This document shows positions 227 to 15,952 of a DNA stretch of 32,000 bases, piece by piece. The stretch lies in assembly GCF_000021865.1 (NCBI RefSeq), contig NC_014034.1:1080001-1112000 (forward strand), given 5' to 3'. The translations under genes were made by a program, and so were the position numbers. Position 1 is the stretch's first letter. Every line of letters starts with the position of its first letter. The notes under the pieces were generated by a model that ran no database searches, was not told where the DNA came from, and saw only the letters and a program-made list of their open reading frames with translations. Source of the DNA: Rhodobacter capsulatus SB 1003. GTDB lineage: Bacteria > Pseudomonadota > Alphaproteobacteria > Rhodobacterales > Rhodobacteraceae.

Positions 227-265
227 TTCTTGCTCCGCGCGTTTTCCAACCTCTGGCACGCGCGC

Positions 266-297
266 GAAAGCAAAACCCCCGGACACAGGTCCGGGGG
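266..297 (-). terminator. Rho-independent terminator immediately after mor
   Basis: A 9-bp GC stem (276..284 cccccggac / 289..297 gtccggggg) with loop acag starts right after the mor stop codon (298..300). On the - strand it is followed by TTTTGCTTTC. Confidence 0.65.
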
Positions 298-666
298 TCA
301 GTCGTCGGGAAAGAGGGGGAGCTGATCGGGCGGCCTGTTCGCCAGCCGCCTGACATGGCGCTGTGAGATCCCGAGCGTGGCGGCGATCTCGCGCCGCCCG
401 CGCCCGGTGTCGGCCAGCCGCTGCACATCGAGACGGCGCATCCTGCTGCGGCCGTGGGGCACATAGAGCCGCTGCCCGGACAGGAAATGGCAGAGTTGCG
501 CCGCGACACCCTCGCCCAGGACCTTCACCAGCTCGGCCGAGGGCTTGCGGCGCGGAAACTCGACTTCCTGCCCCCCGAAATGTTGCATGAGACTGAGGGC
601 AACGCCAAGCCCAAAGGTTTCCGCCACATCGACAAGCGACTCGGGCACGTCAGGGCTGAGGGTCAT
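298..666 (-). CDS. mor: Mor/C-family transcriptional activator (122 aa)
   Basis: The size, the position as last gene of the early operon, and the C-terminal HTH (REIAATLGISQRHVRRL) match the Mu Mor family. ATG start at 666..664. Confidence 0.8.
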   Translation of the reverse strand: MTLSPDVPESLVDVAETFGLGVALSLMQHFGGQEVEFPRRKPSAELVKVLGEGVAAQLCHFLSGQRLYVPHGRSRMRRLDVQRLADTGRGRREIAATLGISQRHVRRLANRPPDQLPLFPDD

Positions 667-714
667 GATAATCTCCGGGGCGCGTGAGGGGAAAGCGTCA
701 GGGGTAGGACCATT

Positions 715-1392
715 TTAGTCCGGTTCGTTGACAGAAAGTGAGAGGCAATTTTTCGCTCCGGCGACACCGTGCGAAAGTTCCACTCTCTCCCCGGCCGCAA
801 GCCCCGCGAGCAGCGCCTTGCCGTTGCGCAGCTTGGCGGGCGCGGGACCCCTGACCGGCGTGCCGCCTGGAAACATCTGGTCCCGCGCCGACATGGCGAG
901 GCTGCGCGCTTCGGACGATCTGACACCTTCAAACAGCGCCTCAAGCTTCATCTGCAGACGCCGCACCATGGCATGCGTGAAGTCCTGGACAGCGCGACGT
1001 TTGCTGTCGATCGACCGGCGGCGCTTGTAATTCTGCGAGCCCTTGTATTCGGCAATCGCACCATCAATCGCCCGGCCGAGCACGACGAAAAGATAAGCCG
1101 CAATCTCAGGGCCGGGTCCGGCTCCGACAAATGTTGCCCGACCAAACTCATAAATCAGCGCGGTGTTGGTGTTGCGGGCCAGCGTCCCCCAGAGCGGATC
1201 GCGCGCCCCGTTACCGTTCGTCTTCGACTTCGCCGAGGCCTTCCCGAACAGGACATCAGCTTCGGTCAACCCGTGTTCCTGCATCAGTTGCGCCGCTTTT
1301 TCGGCGGCGGCCATCGCTTCGGCTTCCGAACAACCGCGGGCTTTGGTCATTCCCAGAAGGGCGGCGATCCTGCGTTTAACGTCGTCGGCCAT
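715..1392 (-). CDS. Hypothetical phage protein with DUF2786-like N-terminus (225 aa)
   Basis: The N-terminus KRRIAALLGMTKARGCSEAEAMAAAEKAAQLMQEHGL is the typical DUF2786 motif. Third codon positions are strongly G/C. The start overlaps the upstream stop (TGATG). Confidence 0.7.
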   Translation of the reverse strand: MADDVKRRIAALLGMTKARGCSEAEAMAAAEKAAQLMQEHGLTEADVLFGKASAKSKTNGNGARDPLWGTLARNTNTALIYEFGRATFVGAGPGPEIAAYLFVVLGRAIDGAIAEYKGSQNYKRRRSIDSKRRAVQDFTHAMVRRLQMKLEALFEGVRSSEARSLAMSARDQMFPGGTPVRGPAPAKLRNGKALLAGLAAGERVELSHGVAGAKNCLSLSVNEPD

Positions 1393-1499
1393 CAGCGCAG
1401 CCCCCAGAACACGGCGGCGGTGACGACGATCATCGCGCCCGGGGCGGCGACGGTCAGCCAGTAATGGGCGCGCAGATAGTCAAGCACGAAGGTCATCAT
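1392..1499 (-). CDS. Small hydrophobic protein (35 aa), below the ORF-track size cutoff
   Basis: MMTFVLDYLRAHYWLTVAAPGAMIVVTAAVFWGLR has one predicted TM helix. It is bracketed by an ATGA overlap with gemA (1496..1499) and a TGATG overlap with the next gene (1390..1394). Confidence 0.4.
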   Translation of the reverse strand: MMTFVLDYLRAHYWLTVAAPGAMIVVTAAVFWGLR

Positions 1500-1942
1500 T
1501 TCCGATCTCCCTCTCTGGGCAATTCGGTGGGGATGTTGTGGCGTTTGCACCAGGCCTGCAGGGCCTCGATCACGGTGCTGATCTGCTTGGCGTCGGTCAT
1601 CCGGTCGATGTCGATCGGCACCGCGCCCCAGGCGGCGCCATAGCGCGACCGGATGAAGGCGTTCAGCCCCTTCGCGCCCGCCACATTCGCGACGCCCGCC
1701 TTGTGCAGCAGGCCCCAGAGGACATGGCAGTAGCGAACATCGCGGCGGGCGGCGGGGGCGCGCTTGCCGCCGGTCTTCTGGAAGCCCATGCGCTTCATCT
1801 CGTCAAGAACCGCAGTTTTCTGACGGTCCGTCATCAGCTTCAGCGAAGCCTTCCCGGTCACCCGCTCCAGCATGGCGCGGTAATCGTCCTCGGCCATGCC
1901 GATCTGGCCCTTGGCGATGTTGATCACGGTGTTCAGGTTCAT
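1496..1942 (-). CDS. gemA: Mu gp16/GemA-like protein (DUF1018), 148 aa
   Basis: From the internal ATG at 1942: MNLNTVINIAKGQIGMAEDDYRAMLERVTGKASLKLMTDRQKTAVLDEMKRMGF...VIEALQAWCKRHNI matches the GemA pattern. The longer track ORF (to 2095) overlaps the upstream gene and is rejected. An ATGA overlap with that upstream gene supports the start at 1942. Confidence 0.75.
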   Translation of the reverse strand: MNLNTVINIAKGQIGMAEDDYRAMLERVTGKASLKLMTDRQKTAVLDEMKRMGFQKTGGKRAPAARRDVRYCHVLWGLLHKAGVANVAGAKGLNAFIRSRYGAAWGAVPIDIDRMTDAKQISTVIEALQAWCKRHNIPTELPREGDRK

Positions 1943-2154
1943 TTCAGCCCCGCATGCGCTTTGAGGATCGCGACCTCGATGTCGTCGGCCCCGAAGTTCG
2001 TCTGAGCCGCCTCGATGTGAAACACAGCGCCCGTGCACATCGTCACCCGCAGCGCCCGAAAGCCGCTGGGCTTGGGAGTGGGCCCCGTGACCCACTCCAT
2101 CGCCGCGACGAACTGCGGGTTGATATGCACCCCGAAGTCGGTCGAGATCATCAT
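1939..2154 (-). CDS. Hypothetical phage protein (71 aa)
   Basis: High GC3 in frame, with ATGA overlaps at both ends (2151..2154 and 1939..1942). I recognise no domain. Confidence 0.55.
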   Translation of the reverse strand: MMISTDFGVHINPQFVAAMEWVTGPTPKPSGFRALRVTMCTGAVFHIEAAQTNFGADDIEVAILKAHAGLK

Positions 2155-3035
2155 TTCAGGACACCGGCCCGGGCGCGCAGCACCTGCAGCAGCTGCGTCT
2201 GCCGCTCGATCGTCACGCCGTTCGGCGTCAGCGCGATGAAGCGCGCCTTGGCCTCGCCAACTTCCTTGCCGATCTCGTCAGCCACGACGGCCATCTGCTT
2301 GCCGCTCGCCAGACCTTCGACCAGCGCCAGATCGAGGCCCGCCGACCAGCCGCCGCGATAGCCGAGCTTGCCCAGGAACTCGGTCAGCTCGCGCCACCAA
2401 AGCGGCTTGGGCTCATCCTTTTGTGCGGACACGTCGGGCAGCGGGGCGATGGGCGCCACGAACGCCGCAACGGACTGCGTCGCCGCCTTTTTCTTCGCCC
2501 CAGACCAGGCCACATAGCGCCCGCGCAGCTTGGGCATGCTCACGCCCAGCGTCGCGGCGACTTCCGCCATATTCGACCCGCCTTCGACGGCCAGGAAGGC
2601 ATCAGCCCAATCCGCATCGCTCGGCTCGCCCCGCGGCGCGGCCACCTCGGCAACGGCGGCCTCGACGGGCGGCGCGACCTCTTCGACGGCGATGTCTACC
2701 GCATCATCCGCGACCTCGGCGGGCTTCGACGCGATGATGGCTTCGAGCAGCTTGTCGGCATCCTCCGTGCCCAGCGGCTCGAATTCCGTGTCATAATCGT
2801 CCGCGACGGCCGGATGCTCCTCGATCTCGATCGTCACGCCGTGAAAATCGGGGGCCGAGTCGTTTTCCAGAAGCTCGTCTGGCTGGTCGGGTTCTCCGAC
2901 GCGCAGGCTCTCAAGGTCATTCAGACCGTCAGCAACGGTCTCCGCAAGCGCGGCATCATAAAAGACCGCGACCGTGACCGGCCTCAGCGCGTAGAGCTCG
3001 ACGCGACCGTCTTCGAGCTGGTTCGTGTAATACAT
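2151..3035 (-). CDS. Highly acidic early protein with C-terminal HTH-like segments (294 aa)
   Basis: Start chosen at ATG 3035, which is preceded by GGAGGA (MYYTNQLEDGRVELY...). Residues ~40-150 hold 33 Asp/Glu against 4 Lys/Arg by my count. The C-terminal half contains MAEVAATLGVSMPKLRGRY and QMAVVADEIGKEVGEAKARF. Confidence 0.65.
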   Translation of the reverse strand: MYYTNQLEDGRVELYALRPVTVAVFYDAALAETVADGLNDLESLRVGEPDQPDELLENDSAPDFHGVTIEIEEHPAVADDYDTEFEPLGTEDADKLLEAIIASKPAEVADDAVDIAVEEVAPPVEAAVAEVAAPRGEPSDADWADAFLAVEGGSNMAEVAATLGVSMPKLRGRYVAWSGAKKKAATQSVAAFVAPIAPLPDVSAQKDEPKPLWWRELTEFLGKLGYRGGWSAGLDLALVEGLASGKQMAVVADEIGKEVGEAKARFIALTPNGVTIERQTQLLQVLRARAGVLK

Positions 3036-3081
3036 GCCATCCTCCGGCTGCTCATCAGGCCCCGGCCACCACGCCGGGACG

Positions 3082-3105
3082 ACGCCCCCGGTTGTCCGGG
3101 GGCGT
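3082..3105 (-). terminator. 10-bp GC hairpin directly downstream of the HU gene (terminator-like, weak U tract)
   Basis: acgcccccgg (3082..3091) / ccgggggcgt (3096..3105) with loop ttgt, 7 nt after the HU stop. No clear U run follows on the - strand, so this may be an attenuator or RNA-stability element rather than a full terminator. Confidence 0.4.
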
Positions 3106-3111
3106 TTCGCG

Positions 3112-3387
3112 TCAGGATTTCTTCGGCTTCGCGGGCTTGAAGGCGAGATGCGCGCTGGCGGGGATCTCGACCTGTTCCCCGGTGGCCGGGTTGCGGCCCA
3201 TGCGCGCCTTTTTCTGACGCTGTTCAAAGGAGCCGAAGCCCATCAGGGTCACCTTCGACCCGGCTTCGGTCTGGGCGGTGATCACGCCCAGCGTGGCGTC
3301 CAGCATGTCCTTGACGTTGGTCTTGGCAAAACCGGTCTGGGCCGCGACTGCGTCGACCAGGTCGGATTTCGAGAAAGTCTTGCCCAT
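3112..3387 (-). CDS. HU/IHF-family nucleoid-associated DNA-binding protein (91 aa), phage encoded
   Basis: MGKTFSKSDLVDAVAAQTGFAKTNVKDMLDATLGVITAQTEAGSKVTLMGFGSFEQRQKKARMGRNPATGEQVEIPASAHLAFKPAK aligns along its length to the HU consensus (GFG.F..R...AR.GRNP.TGE...IPA). AGGAGG lies 6 nt upstream of ATG 3387. Confidence 0.9.
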   Translation of the reverse strand: MGKTFSKSDLVDAVAAQTGFAKTNVKDMLDATLGVITAQTEAGSKVTLMGFGSFEQRQKKARMGRNPATGEQVEIPASAHLAFKPAKPKKS

Positions 3388-10662: not shown

Positions 10663-10952
10663 GCTGCGACTCCCTTGTCAGGATCGAGACCCGCTTTTTT
10701 CCTTGCGATCCGGGCTTCATTCTCGGCAGAAAGAAGCGAGGATTTCCGCATGGGATAACGAGTCGGGAAAAGCTCCGCGGGCGGCACGCCAAGAAAATCG
10801 GCGAGGACCTTCTCGGCAGAGCGGACGGGGCGGCTCCAAACGGACCGCATCTGACTCGGGTTCATGTCGTTGAGGATGGCAAGGCCCGTCAGGGTCATGC
10901 CTTTCTCCTCAAGGGCGCACTTGATCTGGGCTTTCGTCCAGATTTTGCTCAT
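10659..10952 (-). CDS. ner: Ner-like DNA-binding regulator (97 aa)
   Basis: From ATG 10952, with AGGAGG upstream: MSKIWTKAQIKCALEEKGMTLTGLAILNDMNPSQMRSVWSRPVRSAEKVLADFLGVPPAELFPTRYP follows the Mu Ner/Nlp pattern (W....I..AL...G.SL..L ... IA..LG..P..I.P.RY). It is the first gene of the leftward early operon. Confidence 0.8.
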   Translation of the reverse strand: MSKIWTKAQIKCALEEKGMTLTGLAILNDMNPSQMRSVWSRPVRSAEKVLADFLGVPPAELFPTRYPMRKSSLLSAENEARIARKKAGLDPDKGVAA

Positions 10953-11096
10953 CTGGGACCTCCTGGGGAAAGTCGATGTTGGCGCATCGGCTTTTTTCGG
11001 TTTCGTTCGTTGCAATCGTCTGCGGCTCACGCCGCCGACACAGGTAAGGGATAACAGCGCTTCTCTGTTTAGTAAACAGAGAAAGTGAACTTATAG
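10953..11096. promoter_or_regulatory. Immunity switch: divergent promoter/operator region between ner and the repressor gene
   Basis: A 144-bp intergenic region between divergent regulators, AT-richer than its surroundings. It contains a 23-bp perfect palindrome and a T-rich tract (cttttttcggtttcgttcgtt). One candidate early promoter, TTTACT-N17-(TG)TATCCC on the - strand, is weak. Confidence 0.6.
11061..11083. promoter_or_regulatory. Perfect 11+1+11 palindrome TTCTCTGTTTA-G-TAAACAGAGAA (candidate operator)
   Basis: Read directly from the sequence. It lies 14 nt upstream of the repressor ATG and overlaps the candidate -35 of the early promoter. Confidence 0.6.
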
Positions 11097-11813
11097 ATGG
11101 GTAGAAAACCAGTATCAAAAACAGAGTTTTCCCAGAGACTTACGGCGGTCCGTGAGGCGTTAGGGCACGAAAGCAGGAAAGCATTCGCAGGTGTTCTTGG
11201 GATGAACCCAGAGACATTGGGGGGCTACGAGAGGGGAGACACCTCCCCTGACATGCAGTTCCTTGCTCGCTATAAACAGGATTTCGCTGTTAATCTGGAT
11301 TGGCTTATCACCGGTGATGGAGAGATGTTTCAGTCTTCAGCAGGGAGCTCCCAAGGGCTCCCCGCGCCGATCATGGATTTCAGCCAACCGGATTTCGTCA
11401 GATTGCCCGTTTACAACGATGTGCACGCCTCGGCCGGGTCGGGCATGGTGCCCGCCTCAGAACAGGCCGACGGCGTGGTCGCCTTCACCCGCCGTTTCCT
11501 CGCCAACCAGGGCGCAAGACCGGATCACTGCTCGGTCATCTGGGCGCGTGGAACCTCGATGAAGCCGACGATCCCGGACGGCGCGCTTCTCGTCGTCGAT
11601 CACAGCCAGCGCGAAGTCGAGCACGGCTGCATCTACGTCTTCAACGTCTCAGACCGGCTCCTGGTCAAACGCGCCAGATGGCGCCTCGACGGTCGTCTCG
11701 AACTCGTCTCGGACAATGCCGACGAGGGCTATCCGGTCGAGACCTTCGGCGCCGAATCCGTCGATCAACTGCGCGTCGTCGGCCGCGTCGTCTACTTTGG
11801 GAGGACGCCGTGA
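11097..11813 (+). CDS. CI/LexA-type prophage repressor: XRE HTH plus S24 self-cleaving peptidase domain (238 aa)
   Basis: N-terminal HTH (FSQRLTAVREALGHESRKAFAGVLGMNPETLGGYERG). Candidate cleavage site VHASA-GSG (Ala113-Gly114). Ser-Lys dyad in GTSMKPT (Ser154) and LLVKRA (Lys191), with the same 37-residue spacing as in LexA. Confidence 0.85.
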   Translation: MGRKPVSKTEFSQRLTAVREALGHESRKAFAGVLGMNPETLGGYERGDTSPDMQFLARYKQDFAVNLDWLITGDGEMFQSSAGSSQGLPAPIMDFSQPDFVRLPVYNDVHASAGSGMVPASEQADGVVAFTRRFLANQGARPDHCSVIWARGTSMKPTIPDGALLVVDHSQREVEHGCIYVFNVSDRLLVKRARWRLDGRLELVSDNADEGYPVETFGAESVDQLRVVGRVVYFGRTP

Positions 11814-11901
11814 TCGATCAACCGACCGATATAGCCCGCTCGCATGGTTCGGCATCAGCCTCATCGGCGGCGTGCTGGCACCGGCGGCAAAATTTAATCG
11901 C

Positions 11902-11930
11902 TTGACTTACTAACGCTACGTTAGTATAAG
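11902..11930 (+). promoter_or_regulatory. Near-consensus sigma70-type promoter TTGACT-N17-TATAAG, with the palindrome TACTAACG-cta-CGTTAGTA filling the spacer
   Basis: Read directly: -35 at 11902..11907, -10 at 11925..11930, palindrome at 11908..11926. It lies 45 nt upstream of the first cargo gene, whose RBS is GGAGAG. Confidence 0.65.
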
Positions 11931-11974
11931 GGGGCATGCAAACGGGGCATCCCCCCACGGAATGGAGAGCCAAG

Positions 11975-12355
11975 ATGACCAACCGCGCCACCTGCCGCAT
12001 CATCGAGACGCTGGGCAGCCCGACCACCGACGCTGCGATCGGCTGCCTGATTGGCCTCGGCCATCACGAACTGGCCGACAAACTGGCCGCCGCGGAATAT
12101 GACCGCGATTTCTGGCAGCGGTCGCTCGACAAGCTCCCGCGCAATTCCGAGCTGGCGGGCGCCGATGACAACGACAACGCGGATCCCTTCTGGGCGTTTA
12201 AATATAAAGACGTTGCGGCCGGAGACCTCGCATTCTCCAACCTCACGGCAGCCCAGAAAGAGGTCAACCGCCTCTCGGCCGAGGTCGAGGAGATCCGCCA
12301 GCAGATGATCTTGCAGCTTCCGCTCGGCACCTACGAAGATCATCTGGGCCTCTGA
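11975..12355 (+). CDS. Hypothetical protein, cargo operon gene 1 (126 aa)
   Basis: ATG 11975 follows GGAGAG. Strong GC3 bias in frame. The C-terminal part is coiled-coil-like (LTAAQKEVNRLSAEVEEIRQQM). No domain recognised. Confidence 0.6.
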   Translation: MTNRATCRIIETLGSPTTDAAIGCLIGLGHHELADKLAAAEYDRDFWQRSLDKLPRNSELAGADDNDNADPFWAFKYKDVAAGDLAFSNLTAAQKEVNRLSAEVEEIRQQMILQLPLGTYEDHLGL

Positions 12356-12411
12356 CCGCCCTGCCAGTGCGGCCCTACGGGGCTGCACCGCCGGACGATC
12401 AGGAGATGCTG

Positions 12412-12843
12412 ATGGCGCAGTATGACATCAAATATGCCTGCGGCCACACCGCCACCAAGCAGCTGTACGGCAAAGACGCGGATCGGCAGCGCTACATTGC
12501 CTGGGCGGGGCTCAATGCCTCGTGCCCGGCATGTACCGCCGCCAATGCGGCCACAGCATTGGCGGACCTCGAAGCCGAGTATGGGCTGCCTCCCCTCGAC
12601 GGATCGCTCAAACAGATCGACTGGTCTCGTCAGATCCGCGCAGACAAAATTCGGGAGTTTGTGGTGCTGATGGACAAGCAGCGCGCGGCGGTTCGGGAAG
12701 ATAAGCTTGAGCTTTTTGATGTGCAAAATGCAGTGGTCATTACCGCGATGTGCGGCGTGACAGCGGCAAAATGGTGGATCGATCACCGCGATGACGGCGC
12801 TTTTTCGGTGGCGCGTCAGCTGTTTGCCCAGGCCAAGGGGTAA
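12412..12843 (+). CDS. Hypothetical zinc-ribbon protein, cargo operon gene 2 (143 aa)
   Basis: ATG 12412 lies 6 nt after AGGAG. N-terminus YACGH...(26 aa)...CPAC, followed by the motif LDGSLKQIDWSRQIRADKI. No function recognised. Confidence 0.6.
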   Translation: MAQYDIKYACGHTATKQLYGKDADRQRYIAWAGLNASCPACTAANAATALADLEAEYGLPPLDGSLKQIDWSRQIRADKIREFVVLMDKQRAAVREDKLELFDVQNAVVITAMCGVTAAKWWIDHRDDGAFSVARQLFAQAKG

Positions 12844-12845
12844 CC

Positions 12846-13535
12846 ATGCTCATCCGCGACAGTCTGCGCATTACGATTAACAGCCTGCATGGCGGGGCGG
12901 CTGTGCAATTTCCCAAAGACACAACCCTGATCAGCAGTTTCAAAGCGCGCTTTCCGCGGGCGCGGTGGGGATCCGGCACCAGGTCATGGCACATTCCTGG
13001 CAAACTGGCGGCCGCGCGCGCTCAAATATGGGCCGAGGAGCAGTCGGACTATCTCGGCAGGCTCGAAATGGCGGCGCGTGATGCGGAGTGGGCAGATCAG
13101 TCCAAGCCCAGTCCCAGGCCCGCAATCCGGTCGATAATGTGGCACGCGATACCCGGGCAACCGTCTCGGCGCGCTACAGCGGCGCCACCTTCTGGCGACA
13201 TCGAGCGCGCGGTGCGGGCCGTCGAGGATCTGGCGCAGGACACCGTACGCCGCGTGCTTTGGGGATTCCTTTCACCGCCCTTCGGGGTGTGGCAGATCTA
13301 TCCTGCCGGATGGGAGACAGGCTACGGCGATAGCACATACATGGGGTTTTCGACCTGGCACAAGCTGACTGGCGGCACCGGTACGGTGCATTGGCGTTGG
13401 CAGGCCGTTTGCGGCGGCGACACCTGGCAGACAGATGGCTGGATGCCAGATGCCCTGTGGAGTAATCAGGCACTGGCTGGACACCGCGCCAAACTGTGGG
13501 CCGCGATCAATCCCAAACTAGGTATCGTGATATGA
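12846..13535 (+). CDS. Hypothetical Trp-rich protein with DUF5710-like N-terminus, cargo operon gene 3 (229 aa)
   Basis: The N-terminus VQFPKDTTLISSFKARFPRARWGSGTRSWHIPG resembles the small domain found at the N-termini of plasmid TraC-type primases (L.VPF..KD..K..GARWD...K.W.IP). The C-terminal 90 aa are very Trp/Gly rich. Confidence 0.55.
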   Translation: MLIRDSLRITINSLHGGAAVQFPKDTTLISSFKARFPRARWGSGTRSWHIPGKLAAARAQIWAEEQSDYLGRLEMAARDAEWADQSKPSPRPAIRSIMWHAIPGQPSRRATAAPPSGDIERAVRAVEDLAQDTVRRVLWGFLSPPFGVWQIYPAGWETGYGDSTYMGFSTWHKLTGGTGTVHWRWQAVCGGDTWQTDGWMPDALWSNQALAGHRAKLWAAINPKLGIVI

Positions 13536-13732
13536 CCGAGCTAACCATTTCGCCAATCAACGACCCTCGGCCGTTTTCGGATGTCCTGCGGACATGGCTC
13601 GATGCTCGCCAAATCACCGCGTACGCGGCTGCGCCCATACTGGGCACGACGCAACAGTCGATCGGGCGCTGGCTTTCTGGTCAGCCCTGTGCCCACGAGC
13701 GGGCGTATCGGGCGCTGCTGTCCATCTCGTAA
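13532..13732 (+). CDS. Small HTH protein, cargo operon gene 4 (66 aa)
   Basis: ATG 13532 overlaps the gene 3 stop (ATGA). HTH-like ITAYAAAPILGTTQQSIGRWLSGQ. Confidence 0.5.
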   Translation: MTELTISPINDPRPFSDVLRTWLDARQITAYAAAPILGTTQQSIGRWLSGQPCAHERAYRALLSIS

Positions 13733-13756
13733 CTGCATCCCAGTTCGACAACGGAT

Positions 13757-13925
13757 CGCTCTGCGTATTGTCGTGCTTTAATTGACGTCAGGATTGCCGT
13801 TTGCAGTCGATTCCTGACGCTTCCACCGGCGAGATAGACTGCCGACCTTAGTCGCCGTGCCGCCTCACCGAATGGCTATACATTTCTTTTACTATTCAGC
13901 GCTTTGCCTGTTTTCCGCGTGACCA
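13757..13925. repeat. Two imperfect direct repeats, candidate MuA-binding end sites; candidate prophage terminus at ...GTGACCA (13925)
   Basis: 13757..13776 reads cgctctgcgtattgtcgtgc and 13900..13925 reads cgctttgcctgttttccgcgtgacca. They share CGCTYTGC..GT.TT..CGTG. The reverse complement of the outer copy (TGGTCACGCGGAAAACAGGCAAAGCG) resembles the Mu R1 end (TGAAGCGGCGCACGAAAAACGCGAAAGCG) and starts with the Mu-type TG. Confidence 0.3.
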
Positions 13926-13957
13926 TATGCAAGGTCGGCACCGTTTGCCGACCTTGC
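13840..13957. repeat. Three copies of the 10-mer TGCCGACCTT (one inverted); two form a perfect 12-bp-stem hairpin at 13929..13957
   Basis: Copies at 13840..13849 (direct), 13931..13940 (inverted) and 13946..13955 (direct). The hairpin is gcaaggtcggca-ccgtt-tgccgaccttgc. Confidence 0.7.
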
Positions 13958-14604
13958 CATGCCCAAGACCGGCGCAGCAGCCTTTGCGATCATCCTCTAT
14001 GGCGCCTTTTATCCTTTATCCGCCAATATGTTACCATCTGCGGCCGGATGCAGTCTCTTTAGCGCTTTTCTGTCAGGAAATGTCGCCCCAATGTCGAGTT
14101 TTTCCGCCACTTTCGACACCAACTTGCAATCTTCTGCATGTCCTCGATGCATCCAAAAACGTCATATGTGTCAACGTTTTCAGCGCGTTCCACATCGCGC
14201 CTCGGGGTCGTCGCCTCGTCCGGAAGGTAGTCCCCCCCTACATATACTGCCATCGCCGCCAAGATGGCGCGCACCATTCACGCCGTGATCAAGTCCGGCG
14301 AACCCTATCGCCCCTTCTTCGAGGGGGCGAGCCCAGGCGGAAGGACCCCTCTCTGTAGAGCCGTGGAGGCAGCTTCCTGACCTCGTAGATAATGTTCGCC
14401 ATCGTCGGGGAAACGATCCCCCGGATCGTTCCCTGATCCTCCTCTGTCCGCTTGGGATTTCGGATCTCGTCTTGAGGACGGTGAGGGCGGCAATCAGGCC
14501 GACCCTGTATTTGCTATGGAAGAGACCACTTCTTGACGGCGGAGCCCGCCTGGGCAACTATTCAACAGGTACCCGGTCGCTCGGATGCCCCGTGATCTGA
14601 TGCC

Positions 14605-15120
14605 TCAAACGGCAAATCGTTCCCAACATAGGACGTTGTCAGAAACGATGCAGGCGGGTTTGCCGCGCCATTCGATGATCCGATCCAGGCTCCGGATGAC
14701 CCGCTCCGCTGGCAGTGAAAAGTCGACCTCGATGCCCAACCCTTCGCGGTTGAAATCATCCAGCACGTTCAGAAGCCGGAACTGTCGGCCATCGCCGAGC
14801 CGGTCAGCCATGAAGTCCATCGACCAGGTCACGTTCGGCGCATCCGGCACCGCCAAAGCGTCAGGTTTCTCTCGCTTCAGCCGTTTGCGAGGCTTGATCC
14901 GCAGGTTCAACTCAAGGGCGCAATAGATGCGGTAGACCCGCTTGTGGTTCCAAGGATAGCCCTTCACGTTGCGCAAATGCAGGAAACACAAGCCAAACCC
15001 CCAGGTCTTGCGGGCATCGGTCAGGCCGACCAGCAGGTCGGCGATCTCCTCGTTCTCGTCCTTCAGCTTCGGGCTGTAGCGATAACAGGTCTCGCTGACC
15101 TTGAAGGCCCGGCAGGCGCG
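14605..15120 (-). pseudogene. IS3-family transposase OrfB fragment, truncated at both ends
   Basis: Translation ...[66 protein letters not shown]...[12 protein letters not shown]...[20 protein letters not shown]...[10 protein letters not shown] is a typical IS3-family DDE core. Similarity stops right after SDN (about 14634). OrfA and the N-terminus are missing. Confidence 0.7.
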
Positions 15121-15594
15121 AACTCCTGGGCTGGCACCTGTCGCGCTCCGGCAAGGCCACGACCGCCAGCGCCGCGCTTGAACATGCCCTGATCCGCCGG
15201 TTCGGAACGCTTGGCCGGGTCAACCGGGCGTTCCTGCTGCGGTCTGACAATGGCGTTCGCCATGGGCCTCGGACCAGTGGCGGCACCATGGCTCACGCGT
15301 CACAAGCCGCCACTTCACGGCGCTGGTGCACAGCTATGGCCTGAAGCAGGAGTTCATCACCTCGCCATCGGGCTCGGACCGATGGCGCCTCGATGGCTCG
15401 ACCCGCAACAGAACGGCATGGTCGAACGCGTGATCCGCACGCTGAAAGAGCAGTGCATCCATCGCCAGCGCTTCGACAGCATCCAGCACGTGACGCGCGC
15501 CATCGGTGACTGGATCAGCTTCTACAACAACCGTCGCCCGCATCAGGCGCTGGACATGAAAACCCCCGCTGAGGCATTCGCATTAGCGGCTTAA
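15120..15594 (+). pseudogene. C-terminal fragment of a different rve/DDE transposase, 5'-truncated and frameshifted twice
   Basis: There are three in-frame blocks. [45 protein letters not shown] is in frame 0, to 15254. TSRHFTALVHSYGLKQEFIT is in frame 2, 15302..15361. PQQNGMVERVIRTLKEQCIHRQRFDSIQHVTRAIGDWISFYNNRRPHQALDMKTPAEAFALAA is in frame 1, from 15403. Confidence 0.7.
15257..15399 (+). repeat. Two related ~38-nt palindrome-ended insertions (15257..15294 and 15362..15399) that disrupt the transposase pseudogene
   Basis: tcgccatgggcctcggaccagtggcggcaccatggctc against tcgccatcgggctcggaccgatggcgcctcgatggctc: about 30 of 38 positions are identical by eye. Each carries 6-bp inverted repeats 20 nt apart near its ends (CCATGG...CCATGG; CCATCG...CGATGG). 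The gaps between coding blocks are 47 nt (9+38) and 41 nt (3+38). Each shifts the frame by +2. Confidence 0.6.
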
Positions 15595-15952
15595 CCTGTG
15601 CAGATTCAGATGGGTCGATACATGTATGTTTTGGTGAGCCCCGGTGCCACGCTTCAGCGCAAAGAGGGCAGGGGAGAGGGCGCGCTCACTACGTCGGATC
15701 GCCAAGATTTTGATTTTCCACGCAGAACTGCCCCGGGTTTTCCATCGAGACGTGACCCGCATGAGGGTCATGTTCCCGGGGTGCAGGTTCGGGGCAAGGG
15801 CTGGGTTGCCTCCTTCCTTTTGCGGGTCGCCACGGCGGCGCTGACCGTCATGATCCTGACCGGGTTCCGTGCCAATCTGGCCTGAGGTCCCTGCGGCTGC
15901 GCCGGGACTGTCCTGACCAGCATGCAGGCCGCAAGGCCAAGGGAGTCCGACC

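Follow-up and report, generated by a model that had tools for sequence, protein, structure and literature searches.

A four-gene cassette at the left end of the transposable prophage RcapMu is interpreted here, with moderate confidence, as a horizontally exchanged, self-regulated counter-defence operon of the acr-aca type that the phage carries as a moron. RcapMu is a published model transposable phage of Rhodobacter capsulatus, a gene-transfer-agent host. The DNA analysed is a 32,000-nucleotide (nt) stretch of the R. capsulatus SB1003 chromosome (NC_014034.1, positions 1,080,001 to 1,112,000 of the forward strand), which is called the window and whose numbering is used throughout. Positions 11000-14000 match positions 243-3243 of the RcapMu record (NC_016165 / JN190960) on the opposite strand with 100% identity, and the window is therefore SB1003 chromosome with the RcapMu prophage.

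Counter-defence is preferred over host defence because the only characterised relative of the cassette proteins, AcrIF23, is an anti-CRISPR and because the layout resembles that of acr-aca operons. A first-pass annotation of the same DNA had described the cassette as an accessory operon and a candidate defence system. Its accessory nature and its place outside the described defence families stand; the four genes are not a conserved unit, and a defence role is unlikely.

The RcapMu cassette

The cassette consists of four co-oriented open reading frames (ORFs) that correspond to RcapMu5, 4, 3 and 2 of NC_016165 (100% identity). Each is annotated as hypothetical, a label that the four genes have carried since 2011. 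The lengths of 126, 143, 229 and 66 amino acids (aa) given in the first pass check out, as do all coordinates and junctions. The genes and the adjacent repressor are:

11097-11813, plus strand: c repressor (RcapMu6, rcc01011), helix-turn-helix (HTH) and peptidase S24
11975-12355, plus strand: ORF1 (RcapMu5, rcc01012), 126 aa, GGAGAG Shine-Dalgarno sequence upstream
12412-12843, plus strand: ORF2 (RcapMu4, rcc01013), 143 aa, AGGAG at 12401-12405, 6 nt upstream
12846-13535, plus strand: ORF3 (RcapMu3, rcc01014), 229 aa, two-domain protein
13532-13732, plus strand: ORF4 (RcapMu2, rcc01015), 66 aa, small putative HTH protein

ORF1 and ORF2 are separated by a 56-nt gap, ORF2 and ORF3 by a 2-nt gap, and ORF3 and ORF4 overlap at ATGA. 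The host tags of the four genes are RCAP_rcc01012-01015 and these form one predicted unit in a published transcription-unit table; tags rcc01011-01015 have no mention in the main text of published papers. With attL1 of the phage record corresponding to about 14217-14240, the cassette is indeed located between the repressor and the end of the prophage. It also runs with the repressor and against the lytic genes ner, A, B and gam, which are on the opposite strand.

A remote relationship between ORF2 and AcrIF23

When the four proteins are compared with Pfam, PHROGs, NCBIfam and PADLOC, the sole result is the assignment of ORF2 to phrog_16123, a family annotated as of unknown function (E=6e-59). 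An ORF2 profile search recovers 1209 protein clusters at E<=1e-3, none of which contains a Pfam domain. Relatives with 31-37% identity are found on viral contigs, from the gut and elsewhere, and in Bifidobacterium phage BigBern1. The family conserves a zinc ribbon (CxH or CxxC, then CxxC), followed by LxGSxKQIxWAxxIR and (S/T)AKWWIDxRD. In ORF2 the ribbon is at the N-terminus and has the form C10-G-H12 ... C38-x-x-C41. Both this C..H/CxxC ribbon and the LDGSLKQIDWSRQIR motif, which were noticed in the first pass, are real and conserved across the family. The AlphaFold model of ORF2 has two hairpins followed by six helices (predicted local distance difference test, pLDDT, 93.4).

The best PDB match to the ORF2 family profile is AcrIF23 (7FIA; E=2.4e-5), where both motifs occur in order: LTGTARQKEWAEKIRAEK and TAAKFWIENRND of AcrIF23 align with LDGSLKQIDWSRQIRADK and TAAKWWIDHRDD of ORF2. 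AcrIF23 is also the top PDB match to the single ORF2 sequence (E=0.0016). Foldseek, which the first-pass annotation had proposed as a check, places AcrIF23 first among PDB matches to the ORF2 model (E=0.043, probability 1.00, template modelling (TM) scores 0.44/0.40), with the next match at E=1.3. In sequence and fold, the similarity to the AcrIF23 family is remote but consistent over these three methods. Against a library of viral predicted structures, ORF2 matches only uncharacterised viral proteins. On sequence and model comparison, ORF2 is thus structurally related to AcrIF23 at a distance and differs from it in the N-terminal module.

AcrIF23 blocks the Cas2/3 nuclease via a loop spanning residues 17-28 (PMC9270243). 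It is encoded next to AcrIF24 and is a non-toxic inhibitor, which has been expressed in Pseudomonas for assay. The first motif of the ORF2 family profile also matches a second anti-CRISPR, AcrIE7, over ~30 aligned residues (E=0.003). AcrIE7 binds the single-stranded DNA of the R-loop and requires K6 to do so (PMC12002350); K6 is inside the segment that aligns with the first motif of ORF2.

Linkage of ORF2 and ORF3 in other mobile elements

Homologues of ORF2 and ORF3 are adjacent in at least nine unrelated contexts that are phage, plasmid or similar to integrative and conjugative elements (ICEs). The closest relatives of ORF2 (47-48% identity) are found at metagenomic loci, immediately upstream of relatives of ORF3 (37-39% identity, E ~1e-41). 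These loci carry PcfJ, DUF6915, DUF6166 and an HU-like gene and are ICE/plasmid-like. The HU-like gene precedes the cassette in loci L015-L019. Other loci with the adjacency are:

L024 and L027: phage settings that include GH19 or GH108 lysins
L025: accompanied by ParA, SNase and Dam methylase
L026: ORF2-ORF3 adjacency
L020, L021 and L023 (Aquamicrobium and Mesorhizobium genomes): the upstream gene is limited to the helical part of ORF2

When ten loci are compared all against all, an ORF3-like gene is present in every one, an ORF2-like gene in nine and a family of 145-156 aa, referred to as the 150-aa family, in six. One short ORF family also recurs and is confined to three Rhizobiales loci. 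The remaining shared genes are either restricted to the close pair L015/L019 or are opposite-strand shadow ORFs. The 150-aa family is absent from the RcapMu window. Its members are at L015 7133-7603, L019 3177-3644, L024 572-1033, L025 3798-4235, L026 2037-2483, L028 5947-6408 and L023 ~10800-11270, and share the C-terminal signature (A/C)-(V/L/I)-A-W-(A/T/G)-W-(F/L/I/M)-(E/D). Pfam and PADLOC searches with the partner proteins (the 150-aa family, a 129-aa protein, a 192-aa protein and others) give only weak ribbon-helix-helix (RHH) or HTH matches, in small terminal genes. The cassette ends in a small RHH gene in L025, L026, L028 and L029 and in a small putative HTH gene in RcapMu.

The outer genes of the RcapMu cassette behave differently from the inner pair. 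The sole homologue of ORF1 is the C-terminal part of the 192-aa protein of L027 (32% identity, E=1.5e-10), which stands between the ORF2-like and ORF3-like genes. The sole homologue of ORF4 is a 64-aa protein of L024 (36% identity, E=2e-8), whose gene immediately precedes the ORF2-ORF3 pair. As ORF1 and ORF4 each have a homologue at a single other locus and in a different order, the conserved unit, as judged from these comparisons, is ORF2 plus ORF3 and not the four-gene operon. The search for the cassette at other loci suggested in the first pass therefore has a divided outcome: the pair travels and the four genes are not kept as a set. Long ORF2-family proteins (265-376 aa) have other C-terminal extensions, which resemble neither ORF3 nor the 150-aa family, so fusions provide no evidence for the pair. 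In the gut-phage loci L004-L014, no homologue of ORF1, ORF3 or ORF4 stands beside the ORF2 homologue. Plasmid records contain only distant proteins with the N-terminal domain of ORF3, which lack an ORF2 partner and are located beside VapBC or Ku/LigD (Rhizobiales).

Further genes of the ORF2 family are found in the following settings:

L028 and L029: at a prophage end, beside tail and host genes
L030 and L031: early regions, with ParB/PAPS-reductase genes and a repressor
L032: Mu-like prophage in a Hyphomicrobiales metagenome-assembled genome, beside Dam methylase and lysozyme

An orphan Dam-type methyltransferase is near the ORF2-family gene in two loci and a PAPS-reductase/ParB gene in another. 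These contexts are variable accessory regions of the kind that a 2026 preprint reports as anti-defence hot spots (10.64898/2026.07.27.740549).

Several observations concern individual loci. In the ORF2-family protein of L032 (6001-6903, 300 aa), the zinc ribbon is degenerate and the helical domain is present as two tandem copies, each with both motifs; the gene for this protein lies between the Dam methylase and the early region. The N-terminal part of the 192-aa protein of L027 resembles small proteins encoded directly downstream of the ORF2 homologues in L030 and L032, and these look HTH-like by eye. In L024, an element of ~50 nt with the GC-rich hairpin GCAGCCC-TTCG-GGGCTGC is repeated at ~205-270 and 517-570, upstream of two consecutive genes. 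It belongs to the operon whose last gene is the ORF4 homologue and could be an intergenic RNA or a repeat element.

Domains of ORF3 and the outer genes

The model of ORF3 is divided into three parts: an N-terminal domain (residues ~6-87) with a beta-beta-alpha-beta-beta-alpha layout, a disordered linker (87-106) and a Trp-rich alpha/beta C-terminal domain (~108-229). The pLDDT is 76.8 overall and >90 for the N-terminal domain. A fold search against the PDB gives nothing credible for ORF3 (best E 0.19), profiles of ORF3 and of its N-terminal domain match no PDB sequence, and the top 50 whole-model fold matches include no HARP-containing structure. The C-terminal domain is novel on this sequence and model evidence. 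The same empty PDB searches disfavour ORF3 as a relative of AcrIF24.

Relatives with the full-length architecture of ORF3 are few, amounting to 10 clusters among 5.8 billion, and none is found in IMG/VR with back-translated patterns. A profile search of 1.84 billion representatives gives 185 matches, and domain counts were taken on 156 proteins, namely the best 150 of the 185 matches and six further relatives. The N-terminal domain is present in 135 of these, at times in tandem, and is fused to many different C-termini. The C-terminal domain is present in 27, where 19 are stand-alone proteins of 108-147 aa. Both domains occur together in eight.

The first-pass annotation described the N-terminus of ORF3 as DUF5710-like. 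This resemblance is recurrent at the level of the family, with DUF5710 matches in 7 of 36 N-terminal domain segments (best E 1.5e-4) and 7 of 48 full-length proteins. It does not amount to formal membership, as ORF3 itself scores 12.8 bits (E=0.1) against a gathering threshold of 26.5. HARP is matched by 6 of the 48 full-length relatives, and in tandem proteins the first copy matches DUF5710 and the second HARP. Every one of the DUF5710 or HARP matches of ORF3 relatives that was examined individually scored below the Pfam cut-off. The literature holds no informative paper on DUF5710. HARP is a small beta/alpha domain found in the fork-remodelling enzymes SMARCAL1 and T4 UvsW (PMC4666394).

On plasmid pAtC58 of Agrobacterium fabrum C58, a 288-aa protein with two N-terminal domains of the ORF3 type (ATU_RS24220, L034 5962-6828) adjoins LigD and Ku, the proteins of non-homologous end joining. 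This context hints that the N-terminal domain family handles DNA ends or structures.

ORF1 has no match in Pfam, PHROG, PADLOC, NCBIfam or the PDB. The coiled coil ascribed to it in the first pass comes down to a helical or coiled-coil character of the C-terminus, seen in weak, heptad-type matches to PDB sequences, at noise level. An alternative ATG at 11936 would extend ORF1 to 139 aa; it coincides with the expected transcription start and would therefore be usable solely on a leaderless mRNA. For ORF2, GenBank and RefSeq place the start at GTG 12367 (158 aa), 15 codons upstream of ATG 12412. This is probably too far upstream, and ATG 12412 is favoured because homologues begin at the same MAxY and because the AGGAG is at ideal spacing.

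Predicted promoter and putative operator

Two further features precede ORF1:

11902-11930, plus strand: predicted cassette promoter, -35 TTGACT at 11902-11907, N17, -10 TATAAG at 11925-11930
11908-11926, no strand assigned: putative operator TACTAACG-CTA-CGTTAGTA, perfect 8-3-8 palindrome

The near-consensus promoter reported in the first pass can be read directly from the sequence. It matches the consensus at 10 of 12 positions; the window has four matches of at least 10/12, compared to 0.42 expected from shuffles, and three of the four are in the immunity region. A stock promoter scan makes no call at 11902-11930 because T, the conserved last base, is missing from the -10 hexamer. The same TATAAG is the -10 hexamer of the leftward early promoter that faces ner. 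The promoter region is a local AT-rich dip of 45-47% GC.

The 19-bp palindrome occupies the promoter spacer, as first described, and extends two bases into the -10 hexamer. Its 8-bp arms are perfect and it is the sole copy in the window (0.01 expected), with a fold/hairpin z-score of -3.0. An inverted repeat that overlaps the promoter is a feature of acr-aca operons, and one overlaps the predicted promoter here. Its half-site centres are 11 bp apart, a geometry that would suit a dimeric HTH protein. In the preprint cited above, Aca operators are inverted repeats that overlap the promoter, Aca-regulated operons repeatedly contain distant homologues of acrIF23 alongside helicases, nucleases and restriction-modification systems, and the RHH regulator Aca14 occurs most often together with AcrIF23 (10.64898/2026.07.27.740549).

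A second perfect 8-3-8 palindrome, CTCTGTTT-AGT-AAACAGAG, is at 11063-11081 between c and ner and is unique in the window. It is a short distance downstream of the leftward early promoter, predicted as TTGATA-N17-TATAAG, whose -35 is near 11118 on the minus strand. AAACAG half-sites number 15 in the window (6 expected), and four of these cluster at 11065-11279. The palindrome at 11063-11081 is probably the immunity operator of RcapMu. As it differs in sequence from the palindrome of the cassette, the latter is probably read by a different protein. In a microarray-based co-expression study, the module of rcc01012 differs from that of the repressor and from that of the silent early genes; rcc01014 and rcc01015 are without module assignment.

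The cassette occupies a variable slot

RcWaterboi is a sister phage of RcapMu, with 90% average nucleotide identity and mutual immunity (PMC8601537). The two share the c repressor with 94% nucleotide identity, and this is the last common gene before the variable slot. Homology ends at window position 11821, just past the repressor stop codon, so that the whole cassette, promoter and palindrome included, is a swapped module. In its place, RcWaterboi has one unrelated 156-aa gene (gp2, L002 4940-5410), which identifies the slot as a point of moron exchange. The N-terminus of gp2 is signal-peptide-like (MRKILFLAPILLAGTASGA...), and the protein is a candidate exclusion or surface-modifying moron.

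As the cassette is absent from a viable phage of the same immunity, it is accessory rather than part of a Mu-like core. The first pass had stated that its interpretation would fall if the four genes were conserved core genes of all related Mu-like phages and were needed for lytic growth or transposition; they are not core genes. DNA of the region matches only RcapMu among 50,697 phage records, and a tblastn search of phage records with ORF2 finds RcapMu and a 31%-identical gene in one Bifidobacterium phage only. In R. capsulatus assemblies, the exact ORF3 protein occurs in the RcapMu context only. The GC content at third codon positions is 0.69-0.72 in ORF2-4 and 0.82-0.84 in the transposase genes. 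The cassette is a self-contained accessory unit in a variable slot.

Around the cassette, the repressor matches Peptidase_S24 (E=7e-18) and phrog_4 (E=3e-45), and Pfam identifies a Ner-like HTH_35 domain, a ParB-like protein, the Mu transposase, an AAA+ MuB-like protein and Gam in the minus-strand early region. Just outside the left end of the prophage (window 13900-15600), fragments with the rve domain are at 14605-14991 (minus strand) and 15211-15594 (plus strand). The host record has pseudogenes rcc01016-01018 there, one of which is an IS110-family fragment. These insertion sequence remnants place RcapMu in or beside a decayed insertion sequence cluster.

A proposed counter-defence operon and the alternatives

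In the favoured interpretation, a strong sigma-70-type promoter would drive ORF1 to ORF4. The product of the last cistron, ORF4, would be a small HTH protein that binds the 8-3-8 palindrome as a dimer. Binding at the spacer and the start of the -10 hexamer would shut the promoter after an initial burst, and this autorepression would leave low expression in the lysogen. The working parts would be ORF2 and ORF3, which move together between mobile elements. ORF2 would provide an AcrIF23 scaffold in which the zinc ribbon replaces the Cas2/3-binding loop. ORF3 would provide a DUF5710/HARP-like domain, of a type known from other proteins to recognise DNA structure, fused to the novel C-terminal domain. 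The likeliest action would be to shield the DNA of the element from a nuclease-based defence of the host. This may occur by binding to the nuclease or to the DNA intermediate that is attacked, which may be single-stranded DNA, an R-loop or a fork.

Several points weigh against a counter-defence operon of this type. The similarity of ORF2 to AcrIF23 is remote (23% identity over 97 columns, TM 0.44), the alignments span AcrIF23 residues ~54-123, and loop 17-28 is not conserved in ORF2. A shared scaffold is not a shared function and the target of ORF2 cannot be deduced from homology; in addition, members of so large a family could differ in function. For ORF4, which the first pass saw as a small HTH protein, the HTH_31 (E=0.017) and HTH_3 (E=0.072) matches are both sub-threshold, and ORF4 matches no PDB sequence, solved Aca proteins included. 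The core of the palindrome, TAACG-N3-CGTTA, is found in RcapMu alone among 27 loci compared and in none of the 26 others. No comparable repeat is upstream of the L024 homologue of ORF4, the only one known. The 5' untranslated region is no more structured than shuffled sequence, unlike that of Aca1 and Aca2 operons. The position beside the repressor and co-oriented with it is classic for lysogen-expressed exclusion and not for early anti-defence. Finally, a CRISPR-related paper on R. capsulatus describes a type VI system, which targets RNA.

A more specific version of the counter-defence reading, which we regard as unlikely, is that ORF2 and ORF3, with the 150-aa family wherever it occurs, form an undescribed multi-protein module that acts on the DNA substrate and not on a defence protein, and that is widespread in alphaproteobacterial phages, plasmids and ICEs. 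Here, a helical protein of the AcrIF23/AcrIE7 type and a HARP-like, structure-specific DNA binder would jointly cover single-stranded DNA, an R-loop or a fork, giving broad protection against Cas3-type or other processive nucleases. The ORF2 family would then be a general anti-nuclease scaffold, of which AcrIF23 would be one specialised offshoot.

It is similarly improbable that the cassette serves the element through DNA handling or regulation, with ORF2 and ORF3 binding structured DNA and having no role against host immunity. Possible roles include modulation of host repair or recombination, protection of ends or forks, an anti-repressor and an establishment function. DUF5710 is found at the N-termini of plasmid primases. 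The relationship of the ORF3 N-terminal domain to DUF5710 and to HARP, the domain of SMARCAL1 and T4 UvsW (PMC4666394), is consistent with DNA handling, as are the Ku/LigD neighbours on pAtC58, the contact of the AcrIE7 motif that is common with ORF2 to single-stranded DNA and the HU-like gene ahead of the cassette in L015-L019. However, the cassette is dispensable in the sister phage and moves across replication modes, from a transposable phage to lytic-type phages and plasmid/ICE-like elements. Moreover, no DUF5710 or HARP match that was examined individually reaches its Pfam threshold, and PDB searches lend no support.

The first pass favoured a lysogen-expressed defence or superinfection exclusion system in a rexAB-like position, in which ORF2 and ORF3 would be sensor and effector and ORF4 the regulator. 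This is now quite unlikely, as the position alone supports it and the anchor provided by ORF2, AcrIF23, points the other way. The cassette is indeed beside the repressor, co-oriented with it, under its own promoter and at the prophage end, as are the related cassettes of L028 and L029. The slot is a moron hot spot, where the signal-peptide-like 156-aa protein of RcWaterboi is of a sort often used for exclusion, and rcc01012 is outside the low-expression modules that hold most RcapMu genes. Against this, the proteins fall outside the described defence families, as the first pass had also concluded: PADLOC, Pfam and NCBIfam are all negative. In PADLOC (v2), ORF1-3 give nothing at E<=1 and ORF4 gives a noise match to PDC-M64B (E=0.047), and the homologous cassette proteins are also without a match. 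No effector domain (nuclease, NTPase, membrane protein or toxin) is recognisable, and the sole characterised relative is an anti-CRISPR. ICE/plasmid-like elements and early phage regions also carry the cassette, and its four genes are not conserved as a set.

A small DNA-binding gene with a palindromic operator is the usual layout of type II toxin-antitoxin systems. A toxin-antitoxin or addiction module, with ORF4 or the RHH protein as autoregulating antitoxin and a larger protein as toxin, would account for a small HTH/RHH gene in an operon with unknown proteins behind a palindromic-operator promoter but is highly improbable, as Pfam, NCBIfam and PADLOC give no toxin-family match, the DNA-binding gene follows three or four others at the end of the operon instead of being paired with a single toxin, and AcrIF23, the relative of ORF2, is a non-toxic inhibitor that has been expressed in Pseudomonas.

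Significance

Three aspects of this work are new. RcapMu4 (ORF2) is linked to AcrIF23, within a family of >1200 clusters that lacks a Pfam model. In alphaproteobacterial elements, this family has a fixed partner in the DUF5710/HARP-like ORF3, a pair that had not been noted previously. A third partner, the 150-aa family, is recurrent. The counter-defence reading makes the cassette a clonable anti-defence candidate outside the Pseudomonas and enterobacterial systems, which are the source of nearly all Acr work. Should the proteins act on DNA intermediates and not on a Cas protein, they would extend the substrate-shielding that has so far been proposed only for AcrIE7. Were the counter-defence reading to fail, the cassette would still be an ordinary moron of unknown function in a variable slot. 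In either event, a moron adjacent to a repressor need not mean defence.

Comparison with known systems

Lambda rexAB resembles the cassette in being non-essential accessory genes that are beside the immunity repressor and co-oriented with it. There is no similarity in sequence or domains, and the cassette has its own promoter and a separate operator; rexAB is co-transcribed with the repressor, whereas the cassette is predicted from its sequence not to be.

DUF5710 (PF18974) and HARP (PF07443) share with the ORF3 N-terminal domain a small beta/alpha layout and the signature F-P-x-A-R-W ... W-x-V-P. ORF3 itself is attached to neither a primase nor a helicase. AcrIF24 is 228 aa long. It differs from ORF3 in that PDB searches reveal no similarity between the two and ORF3 has no HTH.

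AcrIE7 has in common with ORF2 the GSxKQxxWAxxI helix (E=0.003 with the family profile), over an alignment of ~30 residues. It has neither the zinc ribbon nor the WWIDxRD motif.

Among acr-aca operons, those of Aca1 and Aca2 have a structured 5' untranslated region, which the cassette lacks; ORF4 is unmatched to solved Aca proteins and its pairing with the operator is putative. In Mu-like phages of Pseudomonas, acr loci are not known to sit beside the repressor at the Mu-type left end. What the cassette has in common with acr-aca operons is an inverted repeat in the promoter, one or more small accessory genes, a small HTH or RHH gene at the end and residence in variable parts of mobile elements. 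The available part of the preprint makes no mention of the ORF2-ORF3 pair or of its 150-aa partner (10.64898/2026.07.27.740549).

AcrIF23 has the Cas2/3-binding loop 17-28 where ORF2 has a Cys3-His zinc ribbon, and the two differ in the spacing between motifs, with ~23% identity and TM ~0.44. Like ORF2, however, AcrIF23 has both motifs in the same order and is all-helical after an N-terminal beta-hairpin region. Both proteins are ~140-160 aa long, are encoded on prophages or mobile elements and adjoin a protein of ~228-229 aa, which is AcrIF24 in the one case and ORF3 in the other.

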